Below the pieces are notes generated by a model. The model was given only the letters and a program-made list of their open reading frames with translations, made no database searches and had not been told where the DNA came from. A stretch of DNA of 64,000 bases, taken from contig OZ024744.1 in NCBI GenBank assembly GCA_964016885.1, positions 62,868,001 to 62,932,000 of the forward strand. The letters run 5' to 3'. This DNA comes from Eledone cirrhosa. Taxonomy: Eukaryota. Numbering within the stretch: position 1 is the first letter of the stretch; each line of letters opens with the position of its first letter. Position numbers and translations under genes: made by a program. Shown here piece by piece: positions 11,250 to 58,700 of the stretch.

Positions 11250-14200
11250 TGCCCAAAATACGGGGATCTTATTTAAACCTTACCTTCTCGCTAACAACCC
11301 AACATCCCTCCCACCCGCCCCCACGCACCACCATTATTACGTGGACCAATCATAAGTCAGAGGCCTATACTATCGCTTACCTGGTTGCCTTTCGATATGA
11401 TGGATGGACTACGGAATTCTGGAGGGTTGAAGAGAGAAAAATCTGGACGCTCAGCGACAATGCCAAAGATAAAGACAAATTCACCTCGTGGACGAGAATG
11501 TGAGCACTCCTCCTCTTTGTTTCGGCCGCGGATGGCTAACATAACCCCATCTCCCCCATCCCCCCACACGCAATCCAGAACTTCAGAGTTGGTACCATGA
11601 ATGTAGGCAGGAGTAGGAGTGGAGTAGGAATAATGGTAGCAGAAAAGTGGGCAGATAAGATAATAGACGTAAATAGAGTGAACGACAGAATAATTAAAAT
11701 AAGACTTGTCCTCAATAGAACTACGGTGACAGTAATATCTGCGTACGCACCCCAATCCGGACTGCCCGGCACTATCAAAGACAGATTCTATGAGACACTG
11801 ATGCTCACTACCTCCCAAATAACCGACAGTGACTATATAATTATTGCAGGCGACCTAATTGGTCACGTTGGACAACATTGTGACGGCTATGACGGAATCC
11901 ATGGAGGCTATGGGTTTGGTACTAGAAATGAGGAAGGCTCCAGAATCCTGGAATTCTGTGACGCAAATAACCTAACTATCTGTAACACTAACTTCAAAAA
12001 ACGAGACAATCACCTGATCATCTATAGATCGGGGGAACACACAAGCCAGGTAGATTATATCCTTACCAGAAGACGTGACAGAGTGTCTGTTGTAAACACT
12101 AAATCCCTCCCCCATGAAGAATGCACCTCCCAACATAGACTGATAATTAGCGACCTAATAGTCAGGACGAGACGTACTAGACAGCAGAAGAGGACTATCC
12201 TCAGGAGAAAAATATGGAAGCTAAAGGACCCCACAGCCAGAAATAAATTTAAAAGCATATTACTTGATGCTTTCGACAGTAAGGAAGAGCAATTAGTCGT
12301 ACAATATAGAGGAACAGTAGGAATTCCTGAAAGCAAATCTGCTGATGGCGGCAGACGAAGTCTGTGGCTGGAGCAGGCCTGTAGGCAGGAGGAGAGTAAC
12401 ATGGTGGTGGAACAGTAAGGTGGAGGGGTCAATTAAGGCCAAAGAGCAGGCTTGGAAAGTATGGCGGGATGGGGGAAGTAGAGAAGACTATCAAGTGGCC
12501 AGGAGGGAAGCTAGGAGACAAGTGTACTTCGCAAGAAGGGAAGCAGAGGAAAGAAAGTTCAAGCATGTTCTACAACGCGAGGACCAAAAACGTGAGGTGT
12601 TCAGGATTGCTAGGCAATGTGTCAAGGAAAACCATGATATTGTCGGGGAGAAGTGTGTACTTAATGATGATGGCGTACTTGCCATCACTGACGCTGATAA
12701 GAAGGTAGCTTGGAAGTGTCACTACGAAAGGCTACTAAATGAGAATAAATGGGAGAAAGACAGTCTCCCCCACATCGACCCAATAGAGGGACCAGCAGTG
12801 TTAGTCGAAGGTAGTATAATAAGTAAGGCAATCAAAGATATGAAGACGGGTAAGGCGGCTGGGCCTTCGGAAATAGTTGCTGAGATGCTGAAAGCCTCTG
12901 GAACGGTGGGACACACCATGGTCACCCGGATAGTAAACCAAGTCATACAGAATGGGGTTGTTCCGAAGGACTGGCGTAGCAGCATCATCATTAACTGTTA
13001 CAAGGGTAAAGGAGATGCCCTAGATAGGAGTAACTATAGGGGCATTAAATTAATCGACCAGGTCATGAAGGTCACGGAAAAAGTAATAGCGCAACTAATC
13101 AGAGAGAGAATTGATCTAGATGAAATGCAGTTCGGGTTTGTGTCAGGCAAAAGTACCACAGACGCTCTTTTCATTGTACGACAACTACAGGAGAAGTACC
13201 TAGCTAAAAGTAAACCCCTATACTTAGCTTTTGTCGACTTGGAGAAAGCCTTCGACAGAGTGCCCCGTTCCATTATCTGGTGGGCTCTTAGAAAACTAGG
13301 TGTTGACGAATGGCTTGTGAGAGCTATACAAGCCATGTATAAAGAAACAGTCAGCAAGGTTAGAATTAACAACGAATATAGTGAAGAGTTTAGCGTAAAA
13401 GTTGGCGTTCATCAGGGCTCTATTCTTAGCCCCCTACTGTTTATTATTGCCCTTCAGGCTATAACGGTGGAGTTCCAGACCGGCTGCCCATGGGAACTCC
13501 TATACGCAGATGATCTAACGTTCATAGCTGAACCAATGGCCGAGCTAGAGAAGAAATTCCAAACATGGAAGCACGGCCTAGAATCAAAAGGCCTTAAAAT
13601 TAACTTGGCTAAGACTAAAGTTCTAGTTTGTAGGAAAGAAACTAAGGCACCGGTCCCTTCCGGGAAATGGCCATGCTCATTGTGTAGGAAAGGCGTAGGT
13701 AGAAACTCCATTTTATGTCCCAAATGCAAAGTATGCGTGCATAAAAGATATAGTGGGATCACAGGTAAGCTAACTAAGAACATAGATTTTACATGTGGCC
13801 GGTGCTGTGGTGCAATAAATAGCAGCAAGTGCCCCCAAAATACTAGCTCTTTCAATTGCGCAGAGGGTTCTATAGAAATAGTGGACAGCTTCCGTTACCT
13901 GGGTGACAAAATCAGCAGTGGGGGAGGGTGCTCTGAAAGTACAGTAGCTAGAGTCAGAACTGGATGGAAAAAGTTCAGAGAGCTTATACCACTATTAGCT
14001 GCTAAAGGGTTCTCTCTAAAAATAAAAGGCAGGTTGTATGATGCCTGCATACGAACAGCAATGTTGCATGGCAGTGAGACCTGGGCATTGTGTGCAGAGG
14101 ATATACGCAGACTAGAGAGGAACGAAGCTTGCATGCTCCGCTGGATGTGTAATAGTAATATACGTGAACGGCAAAGCATAAACGAACTAAGGAAAAAATT

Positions 14201-14843
14201 AGAAATAAGAGGATCAGATGTTGTTTACTCGAGAGAAGGCTACGTTGGTATGGTCACGTGATGCGCATGAAAGACGACAGCTGTATAACAAGGTGCAGGG
14301 CAATAAAGATAGACGGTAGCCACGGGGTAGGCAGACCCAGAAAAACCTGGGACGACCTGATAAATTCCGACCTCACACACTTACACCTCTCCAAGACAAG
14401 TCACTGGACCGAGACCTTTGGCGGTACTCAGTAATAGAGAAGACCCGCCTTACCTAAATACAAAGTAAAACCTACTACAGTCAGTAGGCATCTCTAACAA
14501 AATACACCCCCGTCCCACCACCCCCACCCCATCCACACCGCCCCTTTCAATGTAAAGTTATGTTGGTACCACAACATCCAGGCCGAAACAAATGAGATCG
14601 TGTAGGTGTCACGACAAAAAAACACACAGTCCACGCTGTAATGTGGCCGTGTAGGTAACACGGTAAAAACCTCCCAGTCCCACACTGTAAAAGTGGTTGG
14701 TGTTAAGGGCATCCAGCTGTAGAAAACCCGCCAGACAGTCCTATACGAGCAAGACAACCACTCTTGCCTCAAGTGGGAAAACTCCCGTCCAAACCCATGC
14801 AAGCGTGGAAGATGGACGTTAAACGATGATGATGATGATGATG
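11250..14843 (+). mobile_element. Near full-length RTE-clade LINE (APE endonuclease plus RT), frameshifted
   Basis: ORFs 11597-12418 (SAYAPQ, QVDYIL) and 12345-14261 ([23 protein letters not shown]); (TGA)n tail; deletion near 11610; 5' boundary approximate. Confidence 0.95.
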
Positions 14844-19335: not shown

Positions 19336-22300
19336 TCATCATCATCATCATCATGATCGTTTAACATCCATCTTCCACGCTTGCATGGGTTTGGACGGGA
19401 TTTTCCCACTTGAGGCAAGATTGGTTGTCCTGCTCGTATAGGACTGTCTGACGGGTTTTCTACAGCTGGATGCCCTAACACCAACCACGTTTACAGTGTA
19501 GACTGGGTGGTTTTTACCGTGTTACCTACACGGCCACATTACAGCGTGGACTGTGTGTTCTTTTGTCGTGACACCTACACGACCTCATTTGTTTTGGACT
19601 GGCTGTTGTAGTACCAACATAACTTCACATTTAAGGGCGCGGGGTGTAGTGGGACGGGGTGTATTTTGTTAGAGGTGCCTACTGACTGTAGGTTTCGCTT
19701 TGTACTTAAGCAAGGTGGGTCTTCTGCATAACTGTGTAGCGCCAAAGATCTCGGTCCAGTAACATTGTCTTGAAAAGGTTTAAGTGTGTGAGGTCGGAAT
19801 TTATCAAGTCGTACCAGGTTTTTCTGGGTCTGCCTACTCCGTCGCTACCGTCTATTTTTATCGCCCTGCACTTTTTTATAAAGCTGTCGTCTCTCATGCG
19901 CATCACGTGACCATACCAACGTAGTGTTCTCTCAAATAAACAGCATCTGATCCCTCTTATTCCTAATTTCTCCCTTAGTTCATTTATGCTTTGCCGTTCA
20001 CGTATATTACTATTACACATCCAGCGGAGCATGCAAGCTTCGTTCCTCTCCAGTCTGCGTATATCCTCTGCACACAATGCCCAGGTCTCACTGCCATGTA
20101 ACACTGCTGTTCGTATGCAGGCATCATACAGCCTGCCTTTCATTTTTAGAGAGAACCCTTTAGCAGCCAATAGTGGTATAAGCTCTCTGAACTTTTTCCA
20201 TCTCGTTCTGACTCTAGCTACTGTACTTTCAGAACACCCTCCCCCACTGCTGATTTTGTCACCCAGGTAACGGAAGCTGTCCACTATTTCTATAGAACCA
20301 TCTGTGCAATGGAATGAGCTAGTATTCTGTGGGCACTTGCTGCTACTTATTGCACCTGAGCAACGGCCACATATAAAATCTATATTCTTAGTTAGCTTAC
20401 CTGTGATCCCACTACATCTTTTATGCACCCATACTTTGCATTTGGGACATAAAATGGAGTTTCTGCCTACTCCTTTCCTACACGGTAAGCATGGCCATTT
20501 CCCAGATGGTACCGGCGCCCTATTTTCCTTCCTACAAACTAGAACTTTAGTCTTAGACAAGTTAACTTTAAGGCCTTTTGATTCTAGGCCGTGCTTCCAT
20601 GTTTGGAATTTCTTCTCTAGCTTGGCCATTGATTCAGCTATGAGCGTTAGATCATCTGCATATAGGAGTTCACATGGGCAGCCGGTCTTGAACTCCTCTG
20701 TTATAGCCTGAAGGGCAATAATAAATAGTAGGGGGCTAAGAACGGAGCCCCGATGAACACCTACTTTTACGTTAAACTCTTCACTTTATTCGTTGTTAAT
20801 TCTAACCTTGCTGACTGTTTCTTTATACATGGCTTGTATAGCTGTCACAAGCCATTCATCAACACCTAGTTTTCTAAGAGCCCACCAGATAATGGAACGG
20901 GGGACTCTTTCAAAGGCTTTCGCCAAGTCAACAAAGGCTAAGTATAGGGGTTTACTTTTAGCTAGGTACTTCTCCTGTAGTTGTCGTACAATGAAAAGAG
21001 CGTCTGTGGTACTTTTGCCTGACACAAACCCGAACTGCATTTCATCTAGATCAATTCGTTCTCTGATTAGTTGCGCTATTACTTTTTCTGTGACCTTCAT
21101 GACCTGGTCGATTAATTTAATGCCTCTATAGTTACCCCTATCTAGGGCATCTCCTTTACCCTTGTAGCAGTTAATGATGATGCTGCTACACCAGTCCGGC
21201 CCCATTCTGTATGACTTGGTTTACTATCCGGGTGACCATAGTGTGTCCCACCGTTCCAGATGCTTTCAGCATTTCAGCAACTATTTCCGAAGGCCCAGCC
21301 GCCTTACCCGTCTTCATATCTTTGATTGCCTTACTTATTATACTACCTTCAACTAGCAGTGCTGGTCCCTCTATTGGATCGATGTGGGGGAGACTGTCTT
21401 TCTCCCATTTATTCTCCTCATTTAGTAGCCTTTCGTAGTGACACTTCCAAGCAACCTTCTATCAGTGATGGCAAGTACAACATCATCATTAAGGACACTT
21501 CTCCCCGACAATATCACGGTTTTCCTTGAAAACATTGCCTAGCAATCCTGAACACCTCACGTTTTTGGTCCTCGCGTTGTAGAACATGCTTGAACTTTCT
21601 TTCCTCTGCTTCCCTTCTTGCGAAGTACACTTGTCTCCTAGCTTCCCTCCTGGCCACTTGATAGTCTTCTCTACTTCCCCCATCCCACTATACTTTCCAA
21701 GCCTGCTCTTTGGCCTTAATTGACTCCTCCACCTTACTGTTCCACCACCATGTTACTCTCCTCCTGCCTATAGGCCTGCTCCAGCCACAGACTTCATCTG
21801 CCGCCTTCAGCAGGTTAGCTTTCAGGAATTCCCACTGTTCCTCTATATTGTACGACTCTAATTGCTCTTCCTTACTGTCGAAAGCATCAAGTAATATGCT
21901 TTTAAATTTATTACTGGCTGTGGGGTCCTTTAGCTTCCATATTTTTCTCCTGAGGATAGTCTTCCTCTGTTGTCGAGTACGTCTTGTCCTGACTATGAGT
22001 CTATGTTGGGAGGTGCATTCTTCATGGGGGAGGGATTTAGTGTTTACAACAGACACTATCACGTCTTCTGGTAAGGATATAATCTATCTGACTGGCGTGT
22101 TCCCCTGATCTATAGGTGATCAGGTGATTGTCTCGTTTTTTGAAATTAGTGTTACAGGTAGTTAGGTTATTTGCGTCAGAATTCCAGGATTCTGGAGACT
22201 TCCTCATTTCTAGTACCAAACCCATAGCCTCCATGGATTCCGTCATAGCTGTCACAATGATGTCCAACATGACCATTTAGGTCGCCAGCAATAATTATGT

Positions 22301-27081: not shown

Positions 27082-29157
27082 TCATCATCATCATCATCAT
27101 CACCGTTTTACGTCCGTTCTTCCACGCTAGCATGGGTTAGACGGGTTGTCCTGTTGTGTGCAGTGTCTGGTCAGCTGACCATGACTTGCTCATACAGGAA
27201 CTGATCTGGCTTGATTTCTACAGCTGGATGCCCTTCCTAACACCAACCTCATTTACAGTGAGTGCTGGGTGCTTTTTCGTGGCGCCTACACGTCCACTTT
27301 ACAGTGTGGGCTGGGTGCTTTTTTGCCGTGGCACCTCCACGACCACCTTGCGGTGGGGGGGGGGGGGGGGGGGGGGGGCATATTGTTTATATGCTTCAGC
27401 ATGTACCCATGGGAAGTCGTGTACTCTGTATTACTGCGTGACGCCAGAAGTCACAGTCGTGTGTCATTGTTTTTGAGAGGTGTAATTGGGTAAGGTCGGC
27501 TTTTATCACCTCATCACAGGTCATCTTGGGTCTCCCCACTCCGCTGTTTCCATCAACTTCTAGTGCTCTGCACCTTTTTATGCAGCTGTCATCCTTCATA
27601 CGCATCACATGTCCATACCAGCGCAACCGCCTCTCCTACACACAGCATTTGATTCCTCTTATGCTCAGTCTCTCTCTCAATTCATTTATGCTTTGTCGTT
27701 CACGTGTATTACTGTTACACATCCATCGGAGCATGCAGGCTTCGTTTCTCTCTAATCTACGTAAGTCTTCCACCTTCAGCGCCCAGGTCTCACTACCATG
27801 CAACATCGCTGTTCGGATACACGCATCATACAGTCTGCCTTTCATTCTGAGGGAGAAGCCTTTTGCAGCTAGCAGTGGTAGTAGTTCCCTAAACTTCTTC
27901 CATCCCGTTCTTACCCTAGTTATTGTACTTTCTGAACACCCACCTCCGTTGCTAATTCGGTCACCTAGGTAGCAGAAGCTGTCTACTGTTTCTACAGGGC
28001 CCTCCCAGAGATTGGTGGTACTTGTTTCCTGTGGCTGTTTGCTGCTTGCTGTTTCAGCACAGCTGCTGCATGTGAATCCTACATTCTTAATTAAGCTTCC
28101 TGAGATCCCGCTACATCTCTTGTGTACCCATTGTTTGCATTTGGGGCAGAGAATGGAGTTCCTACCTACACCTTTCCTACATACTGAGCAAGGCCATTTC
28201 CCTGAGGGGATCTGGGTTCTGTTTTCTCGTCTACTTACAAGGACCTTAGTCTTTGTCATGTTGACTTTGAGACCCTTTCTCTCTAGTCCCTGCTTCCAGG
28301 TTTGGAATTTATTCTCTAGTTCTACCATAGATTCAGCTATGAGTGCGAGGTCATCAGCATACAGGAGTTCCCATGGGCATCCGGTCTTAAACTCCTCCGT
28401 TATTGCCTGCAGGACTATGATGAACAGGAGAGGGCTAAGAACAGAGCCCTGGTGGACCCCAACCTGTACGCTAAATTCCTCGCTATACTCATTGCTAATC
28501 CTAATTTTGCTGACTGCTCCCCTATACATGGCTTGTACCGCTTTCACAAGCCATTCATCTACTCCTAGTTTTCTAAGAGCCCACCAGATTACAGCACGTG
28601 GAACTCTATCAAAGGCTTTCTCAAGGTCGACAAATGCCAAGTAGAGTGGCTTACTTTTAGCTAGGTACTTTTCCTGTAATTGCCTCACAAGGAAGAGGGC
28701 ATCAGTGGTGCCTCTTCCTGGTACAAACCCAAATTGCATCTCGTCTATATTCACCCGGTCCCTAATCAACTGTGCTATAACTCTTTCTGTTACTTTCATG
28801 ACCTGGTCCATCAACTTTATACCTCTATAGTTTCCTCTATCTAGTGCATCGCCTTTACCTTTGTAGCAGTTGACAATGATGCTACTGCACCAATCTTTTG
28901 GTATGGCCCCTTCTAGTATTACCTGGTTAACGATACGTGTGGTTATAGTGTGACCTACAGACCCAGATGCCTTCAGCATCTCGGCAGCTATACCCGATGG
29001 ACCGGTTGCATTCCCCATCTTCATATCTTTGATTGCCTTACTTACTACGCTGCTGCTGACTTGTACTGCTGGTCCCTCTATAGGGTCTACTTGGGGTAGG
29101 GTCTCTTCTTCCCATGCATTCTCCTCATTTAGTAATCTATCATAATGACTCTTCCAT
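27082..29157 (-). mobile_element. 5'-truncated RTE LINE (second subfamily) between microsatellites
   Basis: Continuous RT frame within ORF 27636-29372 (YADD); the upstream part of that ORF is microsatellite. Confidence 0.92.
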
Positions 29158-29271
29158 GTATATATATACATATATACATGTATATATATACATATATACA
29201 TATATATACATATACATATATACATATATATACATATACATATATACATATATATACATATACATATATAC

Positions 29272-29327
<56 letters not shown>

Positions 29328-29645
29328 TATATACACACATATATATATATACATATCATCATTCATCATCATTTCATTTTATGTCCGCTTTTTCCCTGCT
29401 TGCAAGGGTGGGACGGGAACTGATACTGGCTTGGTTTATTCAGCTGGATACCCTTCCTAACACCAACCTCATTTACAGTGAGTACTGGGTGTTTTTTTTT
29501 TTTGCCGTGGCACCTCCACGACCACTTTGTAGTGGAATGATAGGGACCTCAGTCCTTAGCATCTCATTTCTACAGCTGAGTAAACTGGAGCAATGTGAAA
29601 ATAAAGTGTCTTGCTCAAGGACACAACACATCACCCGGTCTGAGA

Positions 29646-29678
<33 letters not shown>

Positions 29679-29716
29679 GAGATTACATTAATCAAAGTTC
29701 AGTTTAAATCATTTAT

Positions 29717-29765
29717 TTGCTTACAATTGTTTCCTCCAAACCGAGGTTTGGATTCTTCGGAGCAA
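29717..29765 (-). ncRNA. Identical copy of the 40562 hammerhead-like motif
   Basis: Exact reverse complement of 40562-40610. Confidence 0.7.
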
Positions 29766-29829
29766 CTATTTAGTGATCTATAACATACTTGACCTCCTTT
29801 TCAACACAAGAGACATATAAAAACATATG

Positions 29830-31213
29830 CATTAGGAAAAAGCTGCATAGTTTTTTTAAAACATTTAACCTATCCATTACTATGGATATAAATGATAGAA
29901 CTGTGAACTTCCTGGATGTTACATTGGACTTGGATAACCATACGTACACACCGTACCATAAGCCTAATGAATTGCTGACTTACGTGAATACCAACTCTAA
30001 CCACCCTAGGTCGGTCATCAGCGGTATACTGAAGGGCGTATCTAACAGAATAAGTTCACTCTCACATAGTGAGGAGGCGTTTGACTCGCAGGCTGATTAC
30101 TATAATGATGCCTTAGCTAGATCCGGCTTTAGGGACAAATTGTATTACACCCAGGGAAATAATAGTCCTAATAGTAGCTCTACCAGTGTTGTTATAACAC
30201 ATAATATGTCCATTGGTAATGGAGGTGTCGCGAATGGGAGGGTTCTAAATGCCGGTGGAATGAAGCAGCAGGGCACCATTAGTCTAAGTAATAGCAATAG
30301 AGGTGTCGCGAATGGGAGGTTTCTAGATGCCGGTGGAATGAACCAGCAGGGCACCATTAGTCTAAGTAATAACAATGGTAGGCCTCGCAGCTCCCCGCAT
30401 AGACTAGGTGAGCATAGGAACCGTAGAAATAATAATGCTAATAATACTGATGGAAATAGAAAGAATAAAAAGAATAGAAGAAGATTGAATACATACTTCA
30501 ACCCCCCTTTTAATTCTGAAGTGGCTATAAATATTCCTAGGGCCTTCTTCTCTGTGTTAGAAAGGAACTTCCCTCCTGGTAATAGGTACCACTCTATCCT
30601 CAATAAGAATGTTGTTAAACTTTCGTATTCTACAACCCAAAATCTGGCCTCTCATCTGGCCATTACTAATAATAAGAAAATAAAGGAAGGCCTGGACAAC
30701 CTAAGCCTAGGGGAAAACACGGTAGTGGACAGAGTGGGCAGAAACACAAGTGGTGATCATTCTGAGAATAGCATCACCAGAGGTTGTAACTGTAGAAGGG
30801 CTTCAGGCTGCCCCCTGAATGGTTTCTGCCTTGTTAGAAACATAGTTTATGCGTGTGATGTAGTAACTACGGCGTCCACTAAGACCTATATAGGATCAAC
30901 CTCCACCCCCTTTAAGACCAGGTTTAACTCTCATCAATGCACTTTTAGACATAATAAACTGAGGAACTCCACCTCCTTGGCAGCGTACGTCCATAATTTA
31001 AAAAATGCACGAACACATTACACACTTACTTGGCGGCAGGTTGCTAAATCCCATCCATATACTCCTCATAATAGAGTATGTAACCTATGCCTTGCCGAAT
31101 CCCACTCTATTATATTTGCTAAATGCCCTCTACTAAATAGAAAGTCTGAAATATTTTCCTCTTGCCCCCACCGAATATTAAGCTCTTTCTTCTACTTTAA
31201 ACCTGTTAGCTAG
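29830..31213 (+). CDS. PLE RT C-terminus plus GIY-YIG endonuclease (partial, uninterrupted)
   Basis: Within the 474-aa ORF 29789-31213; recognisable homology starts near 29830; no RT catalytic DD motif. Confidence 0.85.
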
Positions 31214-32712
31214 CACTTCCTTATTCCTCCAGTTGGGCTGTCTTGTGTAACTGTCTCTGATTGTGTGTAACTCTCCTATTGTTGGTCGTCTATGTATATG
31301 AGTCGGTGAATGTATACGTATGCCTGTGGGAGGATATTGATCTTGATATTGGGGTGTGCAGGGGAGTGGGTGTGTATGTTAATAAGCACCCCTGTTTGGC
31401 ACAGCGGATGTAACCCATCCACGCTCGCCTACCTACCATTGGTGCATTGGTGGGTCTATCCTGACGTATATCTTGTGGATCTGTACCTCTGTATGCGCAT
31501 GAGTTGTGATGTAATGTATTTATGTAAAGCGTGTACTGTGATTTAGGCTGCACTAATAGAAATTTAGCCTGTAACTGTGGGCGGACCTGTGCCATCCCGC
31601 CGTAAGCAGTGGATACGTGGCGCATGTACGTGTTGCCCTCATATTCTGTGGTTTAAGATCTACAGGCTGACTTCCGGGAGCTCCTGCCCGGGGTTGTAGT
31701 CTTTCTAGCACGATCGGCCTTCCATATATTGACGGTCGTTGTTATGATCCCGAAAGTAACGTTTTGGCCCCGATAGCCCTCCGTAGTTACTAACGGTCTG
31801 TGTACATTTGAATCGGGCAATGGCACGTGCGGACACGATTATCTTCGTAGGATTTCAACTTTATTTTACTACATCTCATCGTATGTATTTGTTTTGAATG
31901 TATTATCTGTGGTGGTGGGTCTGGCCTAATGTGGTATTTCGGTGTTTAATATCAGCTTTGACCCGGGTGTCCTACGCTGTGTGTGTGTGCGTGTGTGTCC
32001 GTGTATACATTTATATGTGTATGGGTGTAGGTGGTTGTATATGTCTGTATATAAAAATATATATATATATATATGTATACCGTCTCTGCATATGCATGTG
32101 GTGTGTATATGTGCATATACGTGCTGAACATATTGATGTGTACAATCTTGTGATGTCCCAATGCGGTGACCTCATGGCTCTTGAAGCTATTTTTTATATA
32201 TCTTCTGTCTTTTTATATATCTTTTGTATGCGCTCCAACTGTGTCTGCTTGCTTTGGCTAACCCGCCTGCACCTCGCTTGCTAATGCACGTGAATTCTTC
32301 TACCTTCCTTCGATGCACCTCTGTTTGACCATTGGACTCCTGCCCGGGTGTGAACCGGTTTGTGATTACCCCACCGCTCAACTGTGTGAATGCACACCCG
32401 CGACTTTCGAGTGAACTTTTGAGACTGCCCAACCTGGGACGCCTCCATTGCCTTGCAATGGTCAAGTGATACTGGTGACTGTGACACTTAGTGCCTTCGT
32501 GGGCCCCTGATATTTTCAAGAAATATATTTTTAAAAAATGGTCAAGTGATACACATAACTGTGACACTTAGTGCCTTCGTGGGCCCCTGATATATTCAAG
32601 AGATATATTCTAAAAAAATATATATCTTATCTCAATTTACTTTATTTCATTTTATTTTATTTTATTTCATTTCATGTTATCTAATTTTATTTATTTACTT
32701 ATTTAATTCCAT

Positions 32713-32743
<31 letters not shown>

Positions 32744-33341
32744 CTTATTTATTTATTTATTTATTTATTTACTTAAATTTAATTTTAATTTTATTTATTT
32801 ATTTAATTTTATTTATTTATTTATTTATTTATTCATTTATTTTATTTAATTACATTTAATTATATCTTATATTATATTATTTTAATTTAGTCTATTTTAT
32901 TTTATTTTAGTTTACCTTATTTTATCTTATTTTATGATTATATTATTTTATCTCATTCCTTACCCTGTATCACTATTATCTGTATATTTTATATTTTATA
33001 TGTAAGTTTGTTATGTATTTCTTTATATTTTCTTATATATATTATAAGTCTGTTTTTCACCTATTTTTTACCTACTCTTACCTAATCCTATCTATCTTAT
33101 CTACTCTTGTCTGTTCTCTTATCCATGTGTATGCTTGTATGTAACTATATGTTGATAGCACCCCGCCCAACTGTGACTGATAGCACCCCTTATTTTTCAT
33201 TGTTTATTTTATTATCTTATTTTTATTTTTATTTTTATTCCTATTTTTATTTTTACTTCCTTAATATCCTTTATCGTCTATTATTATTTTTCATTCTTCA
33301 ACGTCTTGGATTCGTTATTGCTTGTATGGTATGTAATTAAC

Positions 33342-33399
33342 CTTTATGCTCTGATGAGTCCCACTTATAGTGCGGATGAAACAATGTTAGCAAGTAAAG
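33342..33399 (+). ncRNA. Type I hammerhead ribozyme, minimal stem III
   Basis: CUUUA-UGCU CUGAUGA GUCC-CAC(UUAUA)GUG-C-GGAU GAAAC(AAU)GUU^AGCA-AG-UAAAG. Confidence 0.85.
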
Positions 33400-33724
33400 A
33401 TATGCATATGCTATAGGCGTTCTTTGTTATTTATTATATACATATATATATGCATATATATATATACATATATATATATACACATATATATATATACATA
33501 TATATACACATATATATATATACACATATATATATACACACATATATATATACACATATATATATACACACATATATATATACACATATATATACACATA
33601 TATATATACACATATATATATATACACGTATATATACATATATATATATATATATACATATATATGTATACACATATATATATACACACATATATATATA
33701 CACATATATATATACACATATATA

Positions 33725-34299: not shown

Positions 34300-34892
34300 G
34301 GTGGCTGCCAACTCGTTTTCGAGTACGGCCACTACTTTATATCCATGTAGGAGAACCCCTACCGATGCGCTGAACGAGTGTGACTTTTTAGTCCAGCCAG
34401 CGACTTGAAAACTCTGGTACAAACACTACACTTGTGACAATTATTGACACATAGTGTACATGGTACCATGTGACGACAAGTGCAGAGAGATCGCCAGATA
34501 TAAAGCAATGCCTGTGCCGTGAAGCTTTTATAGTGAGCAAAGGCACTGCACAAAGCCAGTCCCACTCTCTTAACCAAGATGATATTTACCAAAAAGAAGA
34601 ACAAGTCAACATCATTGGATACCATCAGGGTTGCAGGTGTTATATCAGAGTTTACCTTCTAGAATTCTGCCTTGACAAAGGCAGAATTCTAGAAGGATTT
34701 TGGATGGCCATTGACTCTTAAGAGCTCCTTTGCCCTTTGACAGGTTTTGTTTTTAGTCCTGCAGAATGTCCTAAGTCACCCTCCTCACCAAGAAACCTTG
34801 GTGGGGTTGCCAGTTTAGTCACCAACGACCCGACCATGAGACAGGTTGTACTGGGATACATGTTACCAGTAGCACCAAGTGGTGACCTGACA
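34300..34892 (-). mobile_element. Non-autonomous internally deleted RTE/BovB-like element
   Basis: Ends with a C2H2-like [22 protein letters not shown], a 3' hairpin CTCGAAAACGAG and (TA)n; further copies at 36687, 37637 and 38140. Confidence 0.7.
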
Positions 34893-34926: not shown

Positions 34927-35307
34927 CATATATGCTGTGCTGAATAAGACCCGTCCCACCCTTGCAAGCAGGGAAAAGCGGACGTAAAATGATGATGATG
35001 ATGATGATGATGATATACATATATATATACATATATATATATACATATATATATATACACATATATATATATATACATATATAAAAACTGCGATAATATT
35101 GCTTTTTGCTGAACTCCTTTTGTAGAGTTTTTTTCGGAATGTTTTTGACTGTTGTTTCTTGTAAACAAACATTCGTCTCATTCTGATGTCACTAGCCCTG
35201 TCTTTCCTCATGTGCGTTTTTCAGAATCACGCACGATGGTGAACTAGCCAGTTTTAAAATTCCCTTTTTGGCATATAAATCTGTGAGAGTCCTGGTTATC
35301 GAGTTGA

Positions 35308-35387
35308 GCTCTGCTGACGATTGAAATCCAACCGTGACCATCTCCACTGAAAGTTTTCATGAAATAGTCTTTAAGACTATACAGAGC
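35308..35387 (+). ncRNA. Type I hammerhead ribozyme, long stem III
   Basis: GCUCUG CUGACGA u-UGAAA..UUUCA-u GAAA UAGUCU(UUA)AGACUA UA^CAGAGC. Confidence 0.8.
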
Positions 35388-35639
35388 ATTTGAAGTTTTT
35401 CCAAATTGAAGGATGAGTATTTTAGACTTTATTTAATCCTGAGTTAAGGCTCTATTGATTTTTCCCTGGATTTCACTAAATTCTGTGGATGAATTTATAT
35501 CCTGATTCTCTTTGAGATGAGTTTGAATTATTTTTCCCACATCTTACGTTAACTATTTTTCCCATTTTGACGTTATAGTCGCATATATGTTATGGAATAC
35601 TATTAGCTTCTCGCTACAACAATTTCTATACCTTTCATT

Positions 35640-35838
35640 TATATATATACATATAAATATATACATATATATATACATATATATATACATATATATATAC
35701 ATATATATATATATACATATATATATACATACATATATACATATATATATACATATATATATATATATACATATATATATACATATATATATACATATAT
35801 ACATATATACATACATATATACATATATACATATATAC

Positions 35839-35871
<33 letters not shown>

Positions 35872-35952
35872 CATATATATATACATATATACATATATAT
35901 ATACATATATACATATATATATACATATATACATATATATATACATATATAC

Positions 35953-35999
<47 letters not shown>

Positions 36000-36018
36000 T
36001 ATATACATATATATATAC

Positions 36019-36053
<35 letters not shown>

Positions 36054-36138
36054 CATATATATATACATATATACATATATATATACATATATATACATAT
36101 ATATATACATATATATATATATATACATATATATATAC

Positions 36139-36199
<61 letters not shown>

Positions 36200-36646
36200 C
36201 ATATATATACATATATATATACATACATATATATATACATATATATATACATACATATATATATACATATATATATACATATATACATATATATATACAT
36301 ATATATATACATATATATACACATATATATATACATATATATATATATACATACATATACATATATATATATACATACATATACATATATATATATACAT
36401 ACATATACATATATATATATACATACATATATATATATATACATACATATATATATATACATACATATACATATATATATATACATACATATACATATAT
36501 ATATATACATACATATACATATATATATATACATATACATATATATATACATACATATACATATATACATACATACATATATATATACATACATATATAT
36601 ATACATACATATATATATACATATATATATATATACATACATATAC

Positions 36647-36677
<31 letters not shown>

Positions 36678-36686
36678 CATACATAT
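35640..36686. repeat. Compound (TA)n/(TACA) microsatellite, about 1 kb
   Basis: Direct reading. Confidence 0.98.
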
Positions 36687-37268
36687 GGTGGCTGCCAACT
36701 CGTTTTCGAGTACGGCCACTACTTTATATCCATGTAGGAGAACCCCTACCGATGCGCTGAACGAGTGTGAATTTTTAGTCCAGCCAGCGACTTGAAAACT
36801 CTGGTACAAACACTACACTTGTGACAATTATTGACACATAGTGCTGGGCCCATGGTACCATGTGACGACAAGTGCAGAGAGATCTCCAGATATAAAGCAA
36901 TGCCTGTGCCGTGAAGCTTTTATAGTGAGCAAAGGCACTGCACAAAGCCAGTCCCACTCTCTTAACCAAGATGATATTTACCAAAAAGAAGAACAAGTCA
37001 ACATCATTGGATACCATCAGGGTTGCAGGTGTTATATCAGAGTTTTCCTTCTCCTAGAATTCTGCCTTGACAAAGGCTAAGGGGTCATCTCTCCCAGTGA
37101 TTTTAGATGGCCATTGACTCTTAAGAGCTCCTTTGCCCTTTGACAGGTTTTGTTTTTAGTCCTGCAGGATGTCCAAAGTCAACCTCCTCATCAAGAAACC
37201 TTGGTGGGGTTGCCAGTTTAGTCGCCAACGACCCGACCCGACCAAAGGGCAAAGGAGCTCTTAAGAGC
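36687..37268 (-). mobile_element. Second copy of the short RTE derivative, with an inverted 5' end
   Basis: Near identical to 34300-34835; about 37243-37268 inverts about 37118-37142. Confidence 0.75.
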
Positions 37269-37636: not shown

Positions 37637-37818
37637 TGTCAGGTCACCAGTTGGTGCTACTGGTAACATGTATCCCAGTACAACCTGTCCCATATCATCT
37701 TGGTTAAGAGAGTGGGACTGGCTTTGTGCAGTGCCTTTGCTCACTATAAGCATCGGTCGGGGTTCTCCTACATGGATATAAGGTAGTGGCCGTACTCGAA
37801 AACGAGTTGGCAGCCACC
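37637..37818 (+). mobile_element. 182-bp mini-derivative of the same element
   Basis: 5' end, one middle block and 3' end joined together. Confidence 0.75.
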
Positions 37819-38200
37819 ATATATATGTATATATATGTGTATATATGTATATATGTATGTATATGTATGTGTATGTATATGTATATGTATGTGTATATGT
37901 ATGTGTATATATATGTATGTGTGTATGTATATGTATGTGTATGTATGTGTATATGTATGTATATGTGTGCATGCATGTATATATGTATATGTGTATGTGT
38001 ATGTATGTATATGTGTATATGTATGTATGTATATTTATATGTATGTGTGTATATGTGTATATATATGTATGTGAGTATGTATGTATGTATATATGTATAT
38101 GTGTATGTATGTATGTATGTATGTATGTATATGTATATGTGTTAGGTCATCAGTTGGTGCTACTGGTAACATGTATTCCAGTACCTGTCCCATGGTCGGG

Positions 38201-43141: not shown

Positions 43142-43527
43142 CTGTTCACAGAGAAATTAATTGAAATGAAATTTTTAGCTCACACCTATGTAAGTTTAGT
43201 TGGCCTCCAGTATAGTTTGCATTGCCATAGGAGCTTTCTGGACTGTTTTGTATAAACAGTATGAAATAATGACATTACCCATTATATGACAGATTACATT
43301 TGTATAAAGAAACACATTGTGTGCGTGTGTGTATACAGTGTAATCTGTCATATAATGGGTAATTTTGGAAATATTCTTGAGAAAGAAAAAAATATATATA
43401 TATATATATATACAAATAAAACTCATATTGATACCCATATTACTAACTCATTGATACCCTGTAATTAACAAGCTCAAAGTATAAATACTGAGCCTTATAT
43501 AATAATATATGTAGAAAGAAATAAACA

Positions 43528-46500
43528 TATAATTCTGTCTCACTGTTCTAAAAAATCTTCTCCACGCTTGTTCTAAATAATCTCGCTACCATTTTGGCTG
43601 AAAATTTATCCAGGATTCATAAAAATGGCTTCTCTCTCTCTTGGCCTTCTAAAATTGGTATCACCCCCACTCTCTATCATATACGTCACTCTCTCAATCT
43701 CTCTCTCACTCCCTACTAGCACCAAATATAAATAAGCCTGCTCCTCGCTAACTACCTCATACCCCTCTCTCCACCTTTATTATTTGGACCAATCACAAGT
43801 CAACGGCCTATGCTATCACTTCTGGTTGCTTTTCGATATGATGGATGGACTAAGGAATTTCTGGAGAGTCTGAAGAATCTGGACACTCAAAGACAATGCC
43901 AAAGATAACGACACATTCACCTCATGCTGCCGGACGAAAGGGCAAAGCCCCCTCCTCTTTGTTGCGGCCGCGGATGGTCAACATAACCCCAACCCCAGCC
44001 CCGCGCCCCACCCACCAAACGCAATCCAAAACTTCAGAGTTGGTACCATGAATGTACGCACCTTAAAAGGCCGCTCTAACGAGGTTGTAGAAATGCTTGA
44101 ACGTAACGAGGTTGATGTTTACTGTATCCAAGAGACCAGGTGGAGCGGTGGGTCTGCTAGATTCATTGTGGGTAAAGAACGATGCTATAAGCTTTTCTGG
44201 GTGGGAAATGACAATGGGCTGGGTGGAGTAGGAATAATGGTAGCAGAAAAGTGGGCAGATAAGATAATAGATGTAAATAGAGTGAACGACAGAATAACTA
44301 AAATAAGACTTGTCCTCAATAGAACTACGGTGACAGTAATATCTGCGTACGCACCCCAATCCGGACTGCCCGGCACTATCAAAGACAGATTCTATGAGAC
44401 ACTGATGCTCACTACCTCCCAAATAACCGACAGTGACTATATAATTATTGCAGGCGACCTAAATGGTCACGTTGGACAACATTGTGACGGCTATGACGGA
44501 ATCCATGGAGGCTATGGGTTTGGTACTAGAAATGAGGAAGGCTCCAGAATCCTGGAATTCTGTGACGCAAATAACCTAACTATCTGTAACACTAACTTCA
44601 AAAAACGAGACAATCACCTGATCACCTATAGATCGGGGGAACACACAAGCCAGGTAGATTATATCCTTACCAGAAGACGTGACAGAGTGTCTGTTGTAAA
44701 CACTAAATCCCTCCCCCATGAAGAATGCACCTCCCAACATAGACTGATAATTAGCGACCTCATATTCAGGACGAGACGTACTCGACAGCAGAAAAGGACT
44801 ATCCTCAGGAGAAAAATATGGAAGCTAAAGGACCCCACAGCCAGAAATAAATTTAAAAGCATATTACTTGATGCTTTCGACAGTAAGGAAGAGCATTTAG
44901 AGTCGTACAATATAGAGGAACAGTGGGAATTCGTGAAAGCAAACCTGCTGATGGCGGCAGACGAAGTCTGTGGCTGGAGCAGGCCTATAGGCAGGAGGAG
45001 AGTAACATGGTGGTGGTGGAACAGTAAGGTGGAGGAGTCAATTAAGGCCAAAAAGCAGGCTTGGAAAGTATGGCGGGATGGGGAAAGTAGAGAAGACTAT
45101 CAAGTGGCCAGGAGGGAAGCTAGGAGACAAGTGTACTTCACAAGAAGGGAAGCAAAGGAAAGAAAGTTCAAGCATGTTCTACAACGCAAGGACCAAAAAC
45201 GTGAGGTGTTCAGGATTGCTAGGCAATGTGTCAAGGAAAACCGTGATATTGTCGGGGAGAAGTGTGTACTTAATGATGATGGCGTACTTGCCATCACTGA
45301 CGCTGATAAGAAGGTAGCTTGGAAGTGTCACTACGAAAGGCTACTAAATGAGGAGAATAAATGGGAGAAAGACAGTCTCCCCCACATCGACCCAATAGAG
45401 GGACCAGCAGTGTTAGTCGAAGGTAGTATAATAAGTAAGGCAATCAAAGATATGAAGACGGGTAAGGCGGCTGGGCCTTCGGAAATAGTTGCTGAGATGC
45501 TGAAAGCCTCTGGAACGGTGGGACAAACTATGGTCACCCGGATAGTAAACCAAGTCATACAGAATGGGGTTGTTCCGAAGGACTGGCGTAGCAGCATCAT
45601 CATTAACTGCTACAAGTGTAAAGGAGATGCCCTAGATAGGAGTAACTATAGAGGCATTAAATTAATCGACCAGGTCATGAAGGTCACGGAAAAAGTAATA
45701 GCGCAACTAATCAGAGAGAGAATTGATCTAGATGAAATGCAGTTCGGGTTTGTGTCAGGCAAAAGTACCACAGACACTCTTTTCATTGTATGACAACTAC
45801 AGGAGAAGTACCTAGATAAAAGTAAATCCCTATACTTAGCTTTTGTCGACTTGAAGAAAGCCTTCGATAGAGTCCCCCGTTCCATTATCTGGTGGGCTCT
45901 TAGAAAACTAGGTGTTGACGAATGGCTTGTGAGAGCTATACAAGCCATGTATAAAGAAACAGTCAGCAAGGTTAGAATTAACAACGAATATAGTGAAGAG
46001 TTTAGCGTAAAAGTTGGTGTTTATCAGGGCTCTATTCTTAGCCCCCTACTATTTATTATTGCCCTTCAGGCTATAACAGTGGAGTTCAAGACCGGCTGCC
46101 CATGGGAACTCCTATACGCAGATGATCTAACGCTCATAGCTGAATCAATGGCTGAACTAGAGAAGAAATTCCAAACATGGAAGCACGGCCTAGAATCAAA
46201 AGGCCTTAAAATTAACATGGCTAAGACTAAAGTTCTAGTTTGGAGGAAGGAAAATAGGGCGCCGGTCCCATCCAGGAAATGGCCATGCTCAGTGTGTAGG
46301 AAAAGAGTAGGTAGAAACTCCATTTTATGTCCCAAATGCAAAGTATGGGTGCATGAAAGATGTAGTGGGATCACAGGTAAGCTAACTAAGAACATAGATT
46401 TTATATGTGGCCGGTGCTCTGGTGCAATAAGTAGCAGCAAGTGCCCACAAAATACTAGCTCTTTCAATTGCACAGATGGTTCTATAGAAATAGTGGACAG

Positions 46501-47382
46501 CTTCCGTTACCTGGGTGACAAAATCAGCAGTGGGGAGGGTGCTCTGAAAGTACAGTAGCTAGAGTCAGAACTGGATGGAAAAAGTTCAGAGAGCTTATAC
46601 CACTATTAGCCGCTAAATGGTTCTCCCTAAAAATGAAAGGCAGGCTGTATGATGCCTGCATACGAACATCAATGTTGCATGGCAGTGAGACCTGGGCATT
46701 GTGTGCAGAGGATATACGCAGACTAGAGAGGAACGAAGCTTGCATGCTCCGCTGGATGTATAATAGTAATACACGTGAAGGGCAAAGCATAAATGAACTA
46801 AGGGAAAAATTAGAAATAAGAGGGATCAGATGTTGTTTACTCGAGAGAAGGCTACGTTGGTATGGTCACGTGATGCGCATGAAAGACGGCAGCTGTATAA
46901 AAAAGTGCAGGGCAATAAAAATAGACGGTAGCGACGGAGTAGCAGACCCAGAAAAACCTGGGACGACTTGATAAATTCCGACCTCACACACTTACACCTC
47001 TCCAAGACAATGTCACTGGACGGAGACCTTTGGCGCTACACAGTTATACAGAAGACCCGCCCTGCCTAAGTACAAAGCGAAACCTACTACAGTCAGTAGG
47101 CACCTCTAACAAAATACACCCCCACCCCATCCACACCACCCCCTTTCAATGTAAAGTTATGTTGGTACCACAACATCTAGCCTGTAAATAAATTATATAT
47201 TAAAAACATTATAAGTCGTATACGTGGTTGGTGTTAGGAAGGGCATCCAGCTGTAGAAAACCCACCAGACAGTCCTATGCGAGCAAGACAACCACTCTTG
47301 CCTCAAGTGGGAAAACTCCCGTCCAAACCCATGCAAGCGTGGAATATGGACGTTAAACGATGATGATGATGACGATGATGAT
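43528..47382 (+). mobile_element. Full-length RTE LINE with a premature stop and frameshifts
   Basis: ORF 44048-45793 (CIQETRW endonuclease, RT start), stop at 45791-45793, RT continues 45851-46971; (TGA)n tail. Confidence 0.95.
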
Positions 47383-54601: not shown

Positions 54602-55744
54602 TTAATAAATAATAAAAAGGTTATATGACTAAGCCCCTTCAAATTCTTGACTATTTTCAAAATAGTCAAAGTAAGCCGCTCTACATGGCATTCATCGATC
54701 TCGAGAAAGCCTTTGACAGAGTTCCCCGTGCTATAATCAGGTGGGCTCTTAGAAAACTAGGAGTAGGTGAATGGCTTGTGAAAGCTGTACAAGCCATGTA
54801 TAGAGGAGCAGTCAGCAAAGTTAGGATTAGCAATGAGTATTGCGACGAATTTAGCGTACAGGTCGGTGTCCACCGGGGCTCTGTTCTTAGCCCTCTCCTG
54901 TTCATCATAGTCCTGCAGGCAATAACGGAGGAGTTTAAGACCAGATGCCCATGGGAACTCCTGTATGCAGATGACCTCGCACTTATAGGTGAATCTATGG
55001 TAGAACTAGAGAAGAAATTCCAAACTTGGAAGCAGAGACTAGAAAGAAAGGGTCTCAAAGTCAACCTGACAAAGACTAAGGTCCTTGTAAGTAGACGAGA
55101 AAACAGAACCCAGATCCCCTCAGGGAAATGGCCTTGCTCAGTATGTAGGAAAGGTGTAGGTAGGAACTCCATTCTCTGCCCCAAATGCAAACAATGGGTA
55201 CACAAGAGATGTAGCGGTATCTCAGGAAGCTTAATTAAGAATGTAGGATTCACATGCTGGGACAGCAAGCAGCAAACAGCCACAGGAAACAAGTACCACA
55301 AATCTCTGGGAGGGCTTTGTAGAAACAGTAGACAGCTTCTGCTACCTAGGGATGGAAGAAGTTCAGGGAGCTACTGCCTGCCACTGCTAGCTGCAAAAGG
55401 CTTTTCCCTCAAAATGAAAGGCAGACTGTATGATGCGTGTATCCGAACAGCAATATTACATGGGAGTGAGACCTGGGCGCTGTCTGTGGAAGACTTGCGT
55501 AGATTAGAAAGAAACGAAGCCTGCATGCTCCGATGGATGTGTAATAGTAATATACGTGAACGGCAAAGCATAAATTGAGAGAGAGAGACTGAGCATAAGA
55601 GGAATCAAATGCTGTGTGCAGGAGGGGCGGTTGCGTTGGTATGGACATGTGATGCGTATGAAGGATGACAGCTGCATAAAAAAAATGCAGAGCACGAGAA
55701 GTCGATGGAAATCGCGGAGTGGGGAGACCCAAGAAGACCTGAGA

Positions 55745-58700
55745 TCATTATCTATAAAAGGCAGTGGATTGGCAGATAGGGCGGTGGATTGGCAGTATCG
55801 GTAGAGGGTCGGACGCCATGCTTTCCAGCATAGTTACGTCCCTTTACGATCTGAGTTCAAATCCCGCCGAGGTTGACTTTGCCTTTCATCCTTACGGGGT
55901 CGATAAAATAAAGTACCAGTAATGCACTGGGTAATTGCTGGCCTTGTGCCTAAAGTAGAAACAATTATCTATAAAAGGCAGATTGTTGTTGTTGTGTGTG
56001 TGTGTGTGTACATGTTCCATGTTTATACATTTGCACAATTTCAAACCGATTCGACTCAAAGTCTGTAAGAATGTTGTAAATGGTCCTAACTTAGGTCAAC
56101 GACTATTTATTTCATTCAAACTCACCCACAATTACGGAAATAATCGATAAAACTAAATACATGATGCTTTACTCCCTATAATACCTTCTGATTACTCTGC
56201 CTAACACCCCTTAAAAATCGAAAAAAAAAAAAATACATGCTGCAACCTACCCGCTCCTTACTAATTTCCTTTAGAGAGAGAAAAAAATAAAGGAGTGAGC
56301 CAGAGACAAACGTTAAATACATGACACTTACATTTTATACCAAACTACAATTATTCAAAAGCAACAGATAAATTTATTCAACAATCTTTTATATACGCTT
56401 AAAATCTTTTTTTTAAAACATCTATCATCCAACTCACACACAATTACATTTTGTGTATAACATATTTACACGTTTATTGAGTGAAAAAAAAAAAACAAAT
56501 AGGGATTTTTGGCCAAACAACTTCAAATTGCTGACAGAAGCGTGCTTTCAATAAACTGTGAGTTATTTATTTGCCGTTCGTTCTCCCATTTTTCCCCCTG
56601 CGGAACGCAAACAGTTTCAGCCTTATACTTTCAAAGGCAATTTTGCTGTAGAAGTAACTTTCACCCTTTCTTTTTCACATAAAATGCCACCTAAAAAGAG
56701 AAGTCGCCTCGGTCGCTATACCGCGTTAGCGGCGGTGCAGAGGGCGATTACAGCAAAAGAGTCCCCCGAGGAAACTGCTTTAAGACTTTCACAGAGTGTC
56801 TTACGTTCAACGGAATGCAGAGCTGCTTAAAGTTTTCAACAATGCACCGCACGCCTAGCTAAGATGGTTTCATACGATGCCTCGAGACGTGGTGCGATGT
56901 GTGATTCGGAGCGGGCGATACGTCATTCCCCCCCAAAAAATGCTTCTACTGCTACTTCCAGGGCTTCTGAGGGCCCGGAACAAAGGTCGACTCGCCTGAA
57001 TAGAAACGCTGCTGCTACTGCTGCTACTAGGGTTTCAGAGGCCTGGAACAAAGGGCGGCTCGACTGACTAGAAACGCTGCGGCTACTGCTGCTTCCAGGG
57101 CTTTGGAAGGTTTGGAACGGCGGACGACTCGCCTTGCTAGGAACGCTGCGGCTATGACTTCTTCCATGGCTTCTGAAGATGCAGACGGGCGCTCCATTAG
57201 GATTGCAAGGGTGGCTTCTGCTACTGCTTCGAGAGCTCCCCACGACCCACAGGAGCAACATTCTACGTTGGAGCGGAACAGTCGACGACAAGAAGCTGCC
57301 CGCGGTGTGACGAGTCCCAACAGCCCATACTGGCACCTACGGGTTTTCAAGTATGAGCCCAACGTTAACTACTCGATGCGTGCCGACATAAATATAGGGG
57401 AAATGCGCTTCAATTGCCAATTCTGCAATGCTAAAAAGTGGGCTAGGGAGCCACCTGCAATGTGCTGCTTAAACGGTAAGGTCAGCTTGCCCCTTCTTGG
57501 GGGAACCACCAGAGCCTTTGAAGTAACTACTTACTGGTTCTACCTCAAGGTCATCCAAATTCCTTCAACTCATCAGGAAGTACAATTGTGCGTTTCAAAT
57601 GACTTCTTTCGGAGCTAACGTTGTCAGAGAAAGTGGTTGGATGCCTACTTTCAAGGTCCAGGGACAGGTGTATTGGGTCGCTCCAGCCACTACAAAATTG
57701 CAAGCCTTCGCTCCTTCAAATTTATTTCATTTGTAACTACAGTAGGCAAGTTGATGCGCGGTTCGGCGTTATTCCACCACCTGCAAACACTGACGTTGAC
57801 ACTTTTGACAGGGACGTGCTGCTCGGTCTTCAAAACATGCTTCATAAGCACAACAGTTATATTCGCAGTTTCAAATACGCATTGGAAACAAATCCTTCAC
57901 CGTTGTCATCGATGCTGACAAAAGACCTTCTGGTGAGCACGCCCGCTGTTATAACGCTCCTTCGTGCAATGAAGTGGCCGTAGTTATCCATGGTGAACAG
58001 CACAATAAGCGGGACATAGTTCTTCAAAGTCGTGACAGTGGTCTTCGACATATTAATGAGACGCATCGTTCATACGACGCTCTGCAGTATCCCCTTCTTT
58101 TTGAATACAAAGAAAACGGGTACCATTTCGGCATTCCTCAGCACAAACCAAACGAGCCCACTGCTGCGACATCTAAAACTGTTTCATGCATGGCTTTATA
58201 CTCATATCGCTTCATGACGAGGCCTAACAATTTCAGCACCTTGCACAGGTCACGGGAACTGTTTCCCCAGTTTGTAGTTGACATGGCTGCAAAGATGGAG
58301 GCGGAGAGACTGTGCTTCATAAAATTGAATCAGAAGCAGCTGCGCTCAGACTCCTACATCCATTTGCGTGACGGCATCAGGAATGACACTGAACCCCGGA
58401 ACATCGGCAAAATGTGCATTCTCCCCTCAACCTATACGGAGGGCTGCGGTACATGCATGAGCGAACACAGGACGCTATGACGTTCGTTCAGCATTATGGG
58501 CGCCCCGATTTATTCATCACATTTACGTGTAACCCCAAGTGGGTTGAGGTTACGCGGGAACTTTTTGGCGGATATTCAGGTTTCCACTTCACCAAAGGCA
58601 CTCATACAACTAGCTGTTCATTTGGAAAATGGCCAGCGGGCTTACTTAACTGGACAGACTGCTGCTCATTTGGCGGCCAATCCAAAAGAAACAACTTTGA

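Follow-up and report, generated by a model that had tools for sequence, protein, structure and literature searches.

A 5'-truncated copy of an abundant hammerhead repeat family in Eledone cirrhosa points to probable retrozyme mobilisation by Hydra-clade PLEs

Animal non-LTR retrozymes, described in coral, mussel and axolotl (Cervera and de la Pena 2020; PMC7229834), are tandem, non-coding, low-GC units that carry a type I hammerhead, range from dimers to long arrays and lie in genomes that also contain PLEs. The axolotl ribozyme HHR_Amex2, which has a U.U at the base of stem II, reaches 22% cleavage in 1 h as a monomer, and its dimer cleaves better (PMC7229834). The enzyme that spreads animal retrozymes has so far been proposed from co-occurrence and partial homology, not shown. 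Retrozymes occurring as monomers, dimers and multimers have been interpreted as PLE-dependent pLTR derivatives of PLEs, on the basis of co-occurrence and pLTR homology in vertebrates (Li, Clavereau and Pollet; 10.64898/2026.07.22.740005). Among PLEs, the Hydra clade is described as inserting into (TA)n, carrying a hammerhead and forming partial tandems, inverted 5' arms and tails (Craig et al. 2021, PMC8557442). Reverse transcription by Poseidon PAc is initiated internally, at sites downstream of the hammerhead, and requires RNA 3' of these sites; hammerhead cleavage is dispensable in vitro, where unprocessed RNA is the main substrate (Frangieh et al. 2024, PMC11167929).

The locus described here lies in the window, the whole 64,000-nt stretch of Eledone cirrhosa DNA that was analysed, in a block that an earlier note, made from the letters alone, had taken for a unique, orphan 560-bp non-coding cassette. 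We find (TA)n on both flanks, as that note had stated. The block and the nearest PLE have the following features:

35084..35640, + strand: putative retrozyme insertion, 5'-truncated, with 557 nt out of a 628-nt unit and without the 71-nt segment bearing the end hairpin
35080..35083, + strand: 5' truncation point, with a 4-nt microhomology between TA target and unit
35013..35083, strand not applicable: (TA)n target array to the left of the insertion
35641..36686, strand not applicable: (TA)n target array to the right of the insertion
35640..35646, + strand: the family's fixed 3' end and a 6-nt AT run common to element and target, the presumed priming site
29680..33432, + strand: neighbouring PLE-A, 5'-truncated, a separate insertion ending in (TA)n, with an ORF remnant at 29777-31213 and a minimal hammerhead at 33347-33392

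Elsewhere in the window, a TA-flanked element of ~590 nt, without a hammerhead by our descriptor, is present twice along with inverted partial copies (34301-34890, 36688-37260, 37641-37820). Copies of an endonuclease-RT LINE, probably of RTE type, lie at 11540-14261, 19706-22083, 27636-29378, 43874-46971 and 54616-55578, with a Pfam RVT_1 match for 12321-14258. Broken ORFs at 57031-60359 presumably resemble Helitron Rep/PIF1 helicase, judging by their motifs.

Far from being an orphan, the block is a copy from an abundant non-coding tandem-repeat family. When it was searched against its own 3.0-Gb genome, scoring the best 39 of 4,844 candidates gave at least 47 near-full-length matches at 92–100% identity, self included. 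Counts of exact patterns, all of them lower bounds, reach at least 2,716 for junctions of the 3' end with TA, 314 for this site where the sequence continues into a further unit, 261 for the young hammerhead 22-mer, 875 for the pattern just 3' of the hammerhead and 436 for a spacer block; a loose hammerhead core pattern gave at least 1,284 matches versus one control match. The unit, defined from tandem copies, measures 628 nt, the window's 557 nt plus the 71-nt segment absent there, and the block is a truncated piece of it, not a complete cassette. Units recur with a period of about 621–640 nt in arrays of 2 to about 70. Their length exceeds the 150–450 nt of PMC7229834 and falls within the 51–972 range of 10.64898/2026.07.22.740005, and their GC content of 33% lies below the 45–50% that serves as the retrozyme criterion. 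The earlier note saw no ORF in the block, and we agree (longest stop-free frame 62 codons, longest ATG ORF 49); across the family the longest stop-free frame spans 62–99 codons, and subfamilies differ by many frame-shifting indels.

Subfamilies range down to 68% identity in a ladder-like tree (135 rows, duplicate loci included), where the window copy occupies a terminal branch of 0.015 within the youngest part. Two long arrays, one of ~70 units (>43 kb, G000:C2:376,629,000-376,673,000+) and one of ~45 units that ends in a (CT)n run, not TA (C2:378,112,500-378,142,100), have units 4–9% apart and probably grew locally. In the loci inspected, a unit is preceded by a further unit, by a TA run or, directly abutting, by an unrelated repeat or unique sequence; an ORF continuous with the unit was never seen in them, the oldest subfamily included, and tblastn of loci L001-L172 returned only separate PLE insertions and the composite L164 described below. 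Non-LTR retrozymes have neither LTR nor PBS nor PPT, and their TSDs, where they occur, are long; the loci contain no terminal-repeat structure, and TSDs are unreadable inside (TA)n. The earlier proposal to look for copy number, tandem arrays and linkage to an RT led to thousands of copies and to head-to-tail self-arrays, with no RT ORF continuous with the unit in the inspected loci, which leaves the solo pseudo-LTR that the note had offered as one identity unsupported. Its other candidate, a retrozyme, fits: tandem, non-coding, AT-rich units with a type I hammerhead and covarying stems likely represent a new non-LTR retrozyme family of an already known type. In the literature covered, which was mostly open-access with most subscription papers outside its scope, we found no report of the family or its hairpin; the main text of an Octopus vulgaris repeat annotation has 0 occurrences of ribozyme or retrozyme (PMC13282606).

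The ribozyme occupies the centre of the block:

35308..35387, + strand: type I hammerhead, with stem I GCUCUG/CAGAGC at 35308-13/35382-87
35314-20 and 35361-64, + strand: hammerhead core, CUGACGA and GAAA, respectively
35322-26/35355-59, + strand: stem II, 5 bp above U.U at 35321/35360
35334-36/35345-47, + strand: distal helix in loop II, GUG/CAC
35365-70/35374-79, + strand: stem III, 6 bp with a 3-nt loop
35381..35382, + strand: predicted self-cleavage site, following the A of UA, where truncations do not cluster

Our descriptor match agrees with the core (CUGACGA/GAAA/UA), 6-bp stem I, 6-bp stem III and U.U at the first stem II position reported earlier; the large loop II does have 28 nt, yet is not simply open, as it contains the GUG/CAC 3-bp helix. 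Under a strict descriptor the real window has one match versus 0/150 dinucleotide-resampled windows, and under a loose one two matches versus 0.03 per resampled window, the two being the block's hammerhead and the minimal one of PLE-A. Rfam did not detect the hammerhead in the block at any threshold tried. The minus strand of the window gave no hammerhead descriptor match, other ribozyme classes having been screened through Rfam alone. In RNAfold the hammerhead fold has −14.8 kcal/mol versus −17.6 kcal/mol for the MFE. The earlier expectation that the RNA would fold as a monomer holds in part: stems I and III form, but stem II does not, and folding within 141 nt of context displaces stem I. 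Since predicted folding favours stems I and III and not II, cleavage may be slow. Folded as a circle, the unit has 60% of its bases paired, with z of −2.4 (young) and −1.9 (old) in sense and −1.2 and −1.9 in antisense (25 shuffles each), a weak signal that is not strand-specific. We considered a viroid-like RNA with ribozymes on both strands and rejected it, because the descriptor matches no hammerhead on the minus strand of the window and the fold is branched and weak, not rod-like.

Comparison among copies indicates that the ribozyme is under selection. In copies found without using the core, the core is intact in 56/66 and 20/27 (76/93 together), and its identity is 0.99 and 0.97 versus 0.93 and 0.90 in neighbouring columns. 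The 99 aligned copies, which were picked with core-containing anchors, have an intact core in 86 cases. Across this alignment 91.6% of stem cells pair, and the two-sided pair changes UA/AU, GC/AU and UA/CG occur in 27, 28 and 43 sequences, compared with no more than 8 cells in slid controls. These compensatory changes represent three events, not 98, each on a separate branch. The pair states follow the order AU/AU/CG (old), UA/AU/CG, UA/GC/CG, UA/GC/UA; in the branch-state table, 'young' pools every row outside three listed groups. The oldest subfamily was first found by the core pattern, and stem I lies outside that pattern. Homologues therefore conserve core and stems, on which the earlier note had made its reading depend. 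The GUG/CAC helix of loop II is 95% paired in the 99 copies, without compensatory change, and all four bases occur at N7. At the foot of stem II most copies have U.U, for which HHR_Amex2 offers a precedent, and some have A-U; other hammerhead families of the genome likewise often show U.U or another mismatch at this position. The 6-bp stem III is unique to the retrozyme among these families, the others having 1–4 bp. A spreading subfamily carries a 1-nt deletion at the stem II base, which counts against the mechanism favoured below.

Over all loci we observed more than 10 distinct type I hammerhead families, most of them 36–60 nt upstream of a TA-joined end; a stem II base mismatch and long stem II extensions are found in many. 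TA runs also harbour two other tandem hammerhead families (L115, − strand, with hammerheads at 199 and 595; L146 2200-2750 and L165, − strand, 1-700). Their units measure roughly 400 and 470 nt, their core is followed by a one-pair stem III, and both are likely further retrozymes. L060 contains a canonical hammerhead (− strand, about 419) that is preceded, within its element, by octamer-like ATGCAAAT repeats, and we take the stem II of this hammerhead to resemble the newt satellite type.

Insertions of the family stop at one fixed internal site, 259 nt beyond the predicted cut, and then pass into (TA)n; at this site the unit carries an AT run of about 6–7 nt that is common to the target. Exact terminal junctions outnumber exact read-through junctions here, at 2,716 versus 314. 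With an anchor placed 19 nt downstream of the predicted cut, 100 hits were examined, not all of them independent insertions: 70 end at the site followed by TA, 15 read through and 15 are unclassified. Ninety of the 100 run upstream through the cut and 10 stop earlier, two of these being internal deletions. Copying of a cleaved linear RNA should pile up 5' ends at the cut (a stop 15–28 nt upstream), and 0/100 anchored hits end there. As 90/100 pass the cut and none stops at it, the template has an intact cut junction, either ligated or uncleaved. The 5' ends vary in position and often coincide with TA microhomologies; 7/30 end-anchored loci extend past the cut and 3/30 pass a junction. Inverted 5' arms, typical of PLEs, are present in retrozyme insertions L174 and L051. 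Units in one insertion are no more alike than the nearest copies elsewhere (10/34 short-array pairs; two pairs are separate insertions), so that no single-circle signature emerged and the comparison did not separate a circle from a linear multimer. Apparent mixed-subfamily arrays at L195 and L183 turned out to be separate insertions in each case. At L102/L103, L013 and L253, ends carry stuttered short repeats of the 3'-terminal bases, like re-priming by a telomerase-related enzyme. At L095, L120, L158, L176 and L253, retrozyme 5' ends meet other TA-targeting elements, forward or inverted, without a TA run, joints that are possible further template switches.

Just past the end site, the retrozyme, PLE-A, PLE-B and six more families share a bulged hairpin, a 25-nt element of the general form RYUC-stem-loop-stem-UW-GARY. 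It reads ACUC-GGA-loop-UCC-UA-GAGU in the retrozyme, GCUC-UGUC-loop-GACA-UU-GAGC in PLE-A and GCUC-UGU-loop-ACA-UA-GAGC in PLE-B, the inner stem varying compensatorily among families. In PLE-A and the retrozyme the hairpin starts 4 nt past the last base common to the target; in the six further families, which have visible TA-joined ends and different inner stems, it lies about 5–12 nt past the end. The strict hairpin descriptor has a background of 0.4 matches per 128 kb of shuffled window (5 shuffles), and a relaxed one returned 116 distinct strings from the full set of loci, a few of which are evidently due to chance. RNAfold produced the outer stem at 4/4 junctions and the full bulged form at 3/4. 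By the same descriptor, the hairpin is absent from the two other tandem hammerhead families (L115; L146/L165 types), and we did not find it in the searched parts of the text of PMC8557442 and one of its supplement files. A further copy in the window (43470-43493, − strand) follows an AT run about 80 nt before a TA run; it matches the L092 flank and so is a fragment of another family.

We consider it rather likely that the hairpin is a docking site for the PLE protein. Its position 3' of the start site matches the need of PAc for RNA 3' of the start; the PAc start is an AC-rich stem-loop without target homology (PMC11167929), whereas here a 6–7-nt AT run common to the target is followed by the conserved bulged hairpin. 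The same position means that the hairpin is dropped from every terminal unit, as in the window, and is kept at internal junctions only. With a single hammerhead and no hairpin, the window copy is therefore expected to be a dead end, and should be an ordinary dead fragment. The family differs from the retrozymes described in PMC7229834 by this defined cis hairpin, by its 6-bp stem III and by inserting strictly into (TA)n with a single fixed 3' end and without visible TSDs.

Which PLEs could serve as helpers? Pfam search of the PLE-A remnant gave nothing. Hydra-clade traits are an RWK-like motif, DKT, a CxCX5C linker, and CxxC and CxH in the C-terminal GIY-YIG (PMC8557442). The frames of PLE-A (873 aa, unit about 4.9 kb) and PLE-B (714 aa, unit 4,305 nt) contain RWR/RWK, DKT, CNCRRASGC/CSCRKPDEC, CNLC/CSLC and CPH, motifs that assign both to the Hydra clade as judged from their translations. 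Both occur head-to-tail and end at a short internal AT run, followed by (TA)n or tandem read-through, with a cut-to-end distance of 36–51 nt versus 259 nt in the retrozyme. BLAST of the retrozyme against PLE-A and PLE-B (33 PLE-B loci) found no similarity beyond AT-rich noise, the L164 composite excepted. At L164, a retrozyme segment (positions 71-349) is enclosed by one PLE-B insertion, whose inverted arm flanks it on one side and whose 5'-truncated forward arm on the other, with a long TA run at neither junction; this is a probable single template switch, although the one composite could have arisen by later deletion. The earlier note had dismissed any likeness to the neighbouring PLE. This is right for the sequence, but architecture and end hairpin are alike, and this link is the most informative part of the locus. 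A Hydra-clade PLE is very probably the helper, with PLE-A and PLE-B being the only families compared in full. The retrozyme differs from Hydra-clade PLEs in having no ORF and from non-autonomous Chlamys elements such as MRC1, which resemble their helper at the 3' end and are mostly without hammerheads (PMC8557442). In contrast to the retrozymes of 10.64898/2026.07.22.740005, it shows no homology to the two PLE families, the link consisting of a structural motif, the integration signature and one composite.

These observations make it probable that the block is a 5'-truncated copy of a non-LTR retrozyme family mobilised in trans by Hydra-clade PLEs. In the mechanism that we envisage, an array of at least two units would be transcribed, and the hammerhead, probably slow because of its U.U pair and weak stem II, would excise unit-length RNA that likely circularises. 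A Hydra PLE protein would bind the bulged hairpin 10 nt past the 3' end site, nick (TA)n and prime internally on the adjoining AT run. Copying would proceed upstream across the hammerhead junction, mostly dropping off within one unit and at times continuing through several. Self-cleavage of the hammerhead is predicted from its core and stems; circular RNA expression has been shown for the retrozymes of PMC7229834 and would be expected of the present family.

We slightly favour a circular RNA as the template over uncleaved multimeric RNA. The same element, with the same PLE helper, could instead be copied from uncleaved linear multimers transcribed from long arrays, the hammerhead trimming or stabilising the RNA or acting late. 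This account, which we hold to be appreciably less probable than an even chance, draws on the dominance of unprocessed RNA as the in vitro substrate of a Poseidon PLE (PMC11167929); since cleavage is dispensable there, an uncleaved linear template stays viable. Long source arrays are at hand, the ribozyme is predicted to be weak, and the lack of stops at the cut is equally consistent with a linear multimer. However, linear copying should shorten arrays in each generation, because each insertion loses its last hairpin and about 1/10 of copies pass a junction, and yet the family persists to 68% identity and conserves its ribozyme; this is an argument, not a test, and is our reason for preferring the circle. 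A linear multimer also accounts less simply for the compensatory changes.

The remaining alternatives concern the origin of the unit or the agent of its spread. A unit that is a pseudo-LTR or an internally deleted derivative of an unseen PLE family, as proposed for Xenopus retrozymes, where 24/57 families are homologous to known TEs, nearly all of them PLE termini (10.64898/2026.07.22.740005), would explain the PLE-like hairpin and end structure, and two of many PLE families present were compared in full. We regard it as unlikely, given the lack of similarity to PLE-A and, L164 apart, to the PLE-B loci, of an ORF continuous with the unit in examined loci down to the oldest subfamily, and the discordant cut-to-end distance and stem III length; it concerns origin and is compatible with a PLE-mobilised retrozyme. 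Mobilisation by another TA-targeting enzyme, a Naiad/Neptune PLE or the abundant RTE-type LINE, would make the hairpin likeness incidental. Naiads also prefer (TA)n (PMC8557442), RT-bearing LINE copies are common in the window and L164 is a single case, but a hairpin at like spacing in nine families exceeds the descriptor background of 0.4 per 128 kb, LINE copies in the flanks end in ATG repeats, and tandem read-through and inverted arms are PLE traits, which leaves this reading quite improbable. The few long arrays with heterogeneous units do indicate local expansion, and their growth may be that of a DNA-level satellite, in which recombination between TA runs spreads the units and the hammerhead-like sequence is a relic. 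For the dispersed copies such a satellite is largely refuted, since across thousands of sites they share a single fixed 3' end but have random 5' ends, and their stems show three compensatory changes; as an account of the family we give it hardly any credence.

The PLE-mobilised retrozyme can be taken one step further, tentatively and at somewhat less than even probability: the hairpin of Hydra-clade PLEs may fix the RT start, and an unrelated hammerhead circular RNA may have acquired it, becoming a structure-only parasite that is rolled into (TA)n. If true, the docking signal, the priming site and a template-switch fossil can all be read in the genome. The case is of value because the genome itself provides evidence on the helper and on the signal for its docking. 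The retrozyme family points to one clade as helper, to the exact site of initiation and to a 25-nt cis element, which opens the question of how retrozymes spread to a direct in vitro assay with purified Hydra PLE protein; the hairpin would be a first candidate RNA signal for internal initiation by a PLE, and would also be a portable tag for TA-targeted insertion.
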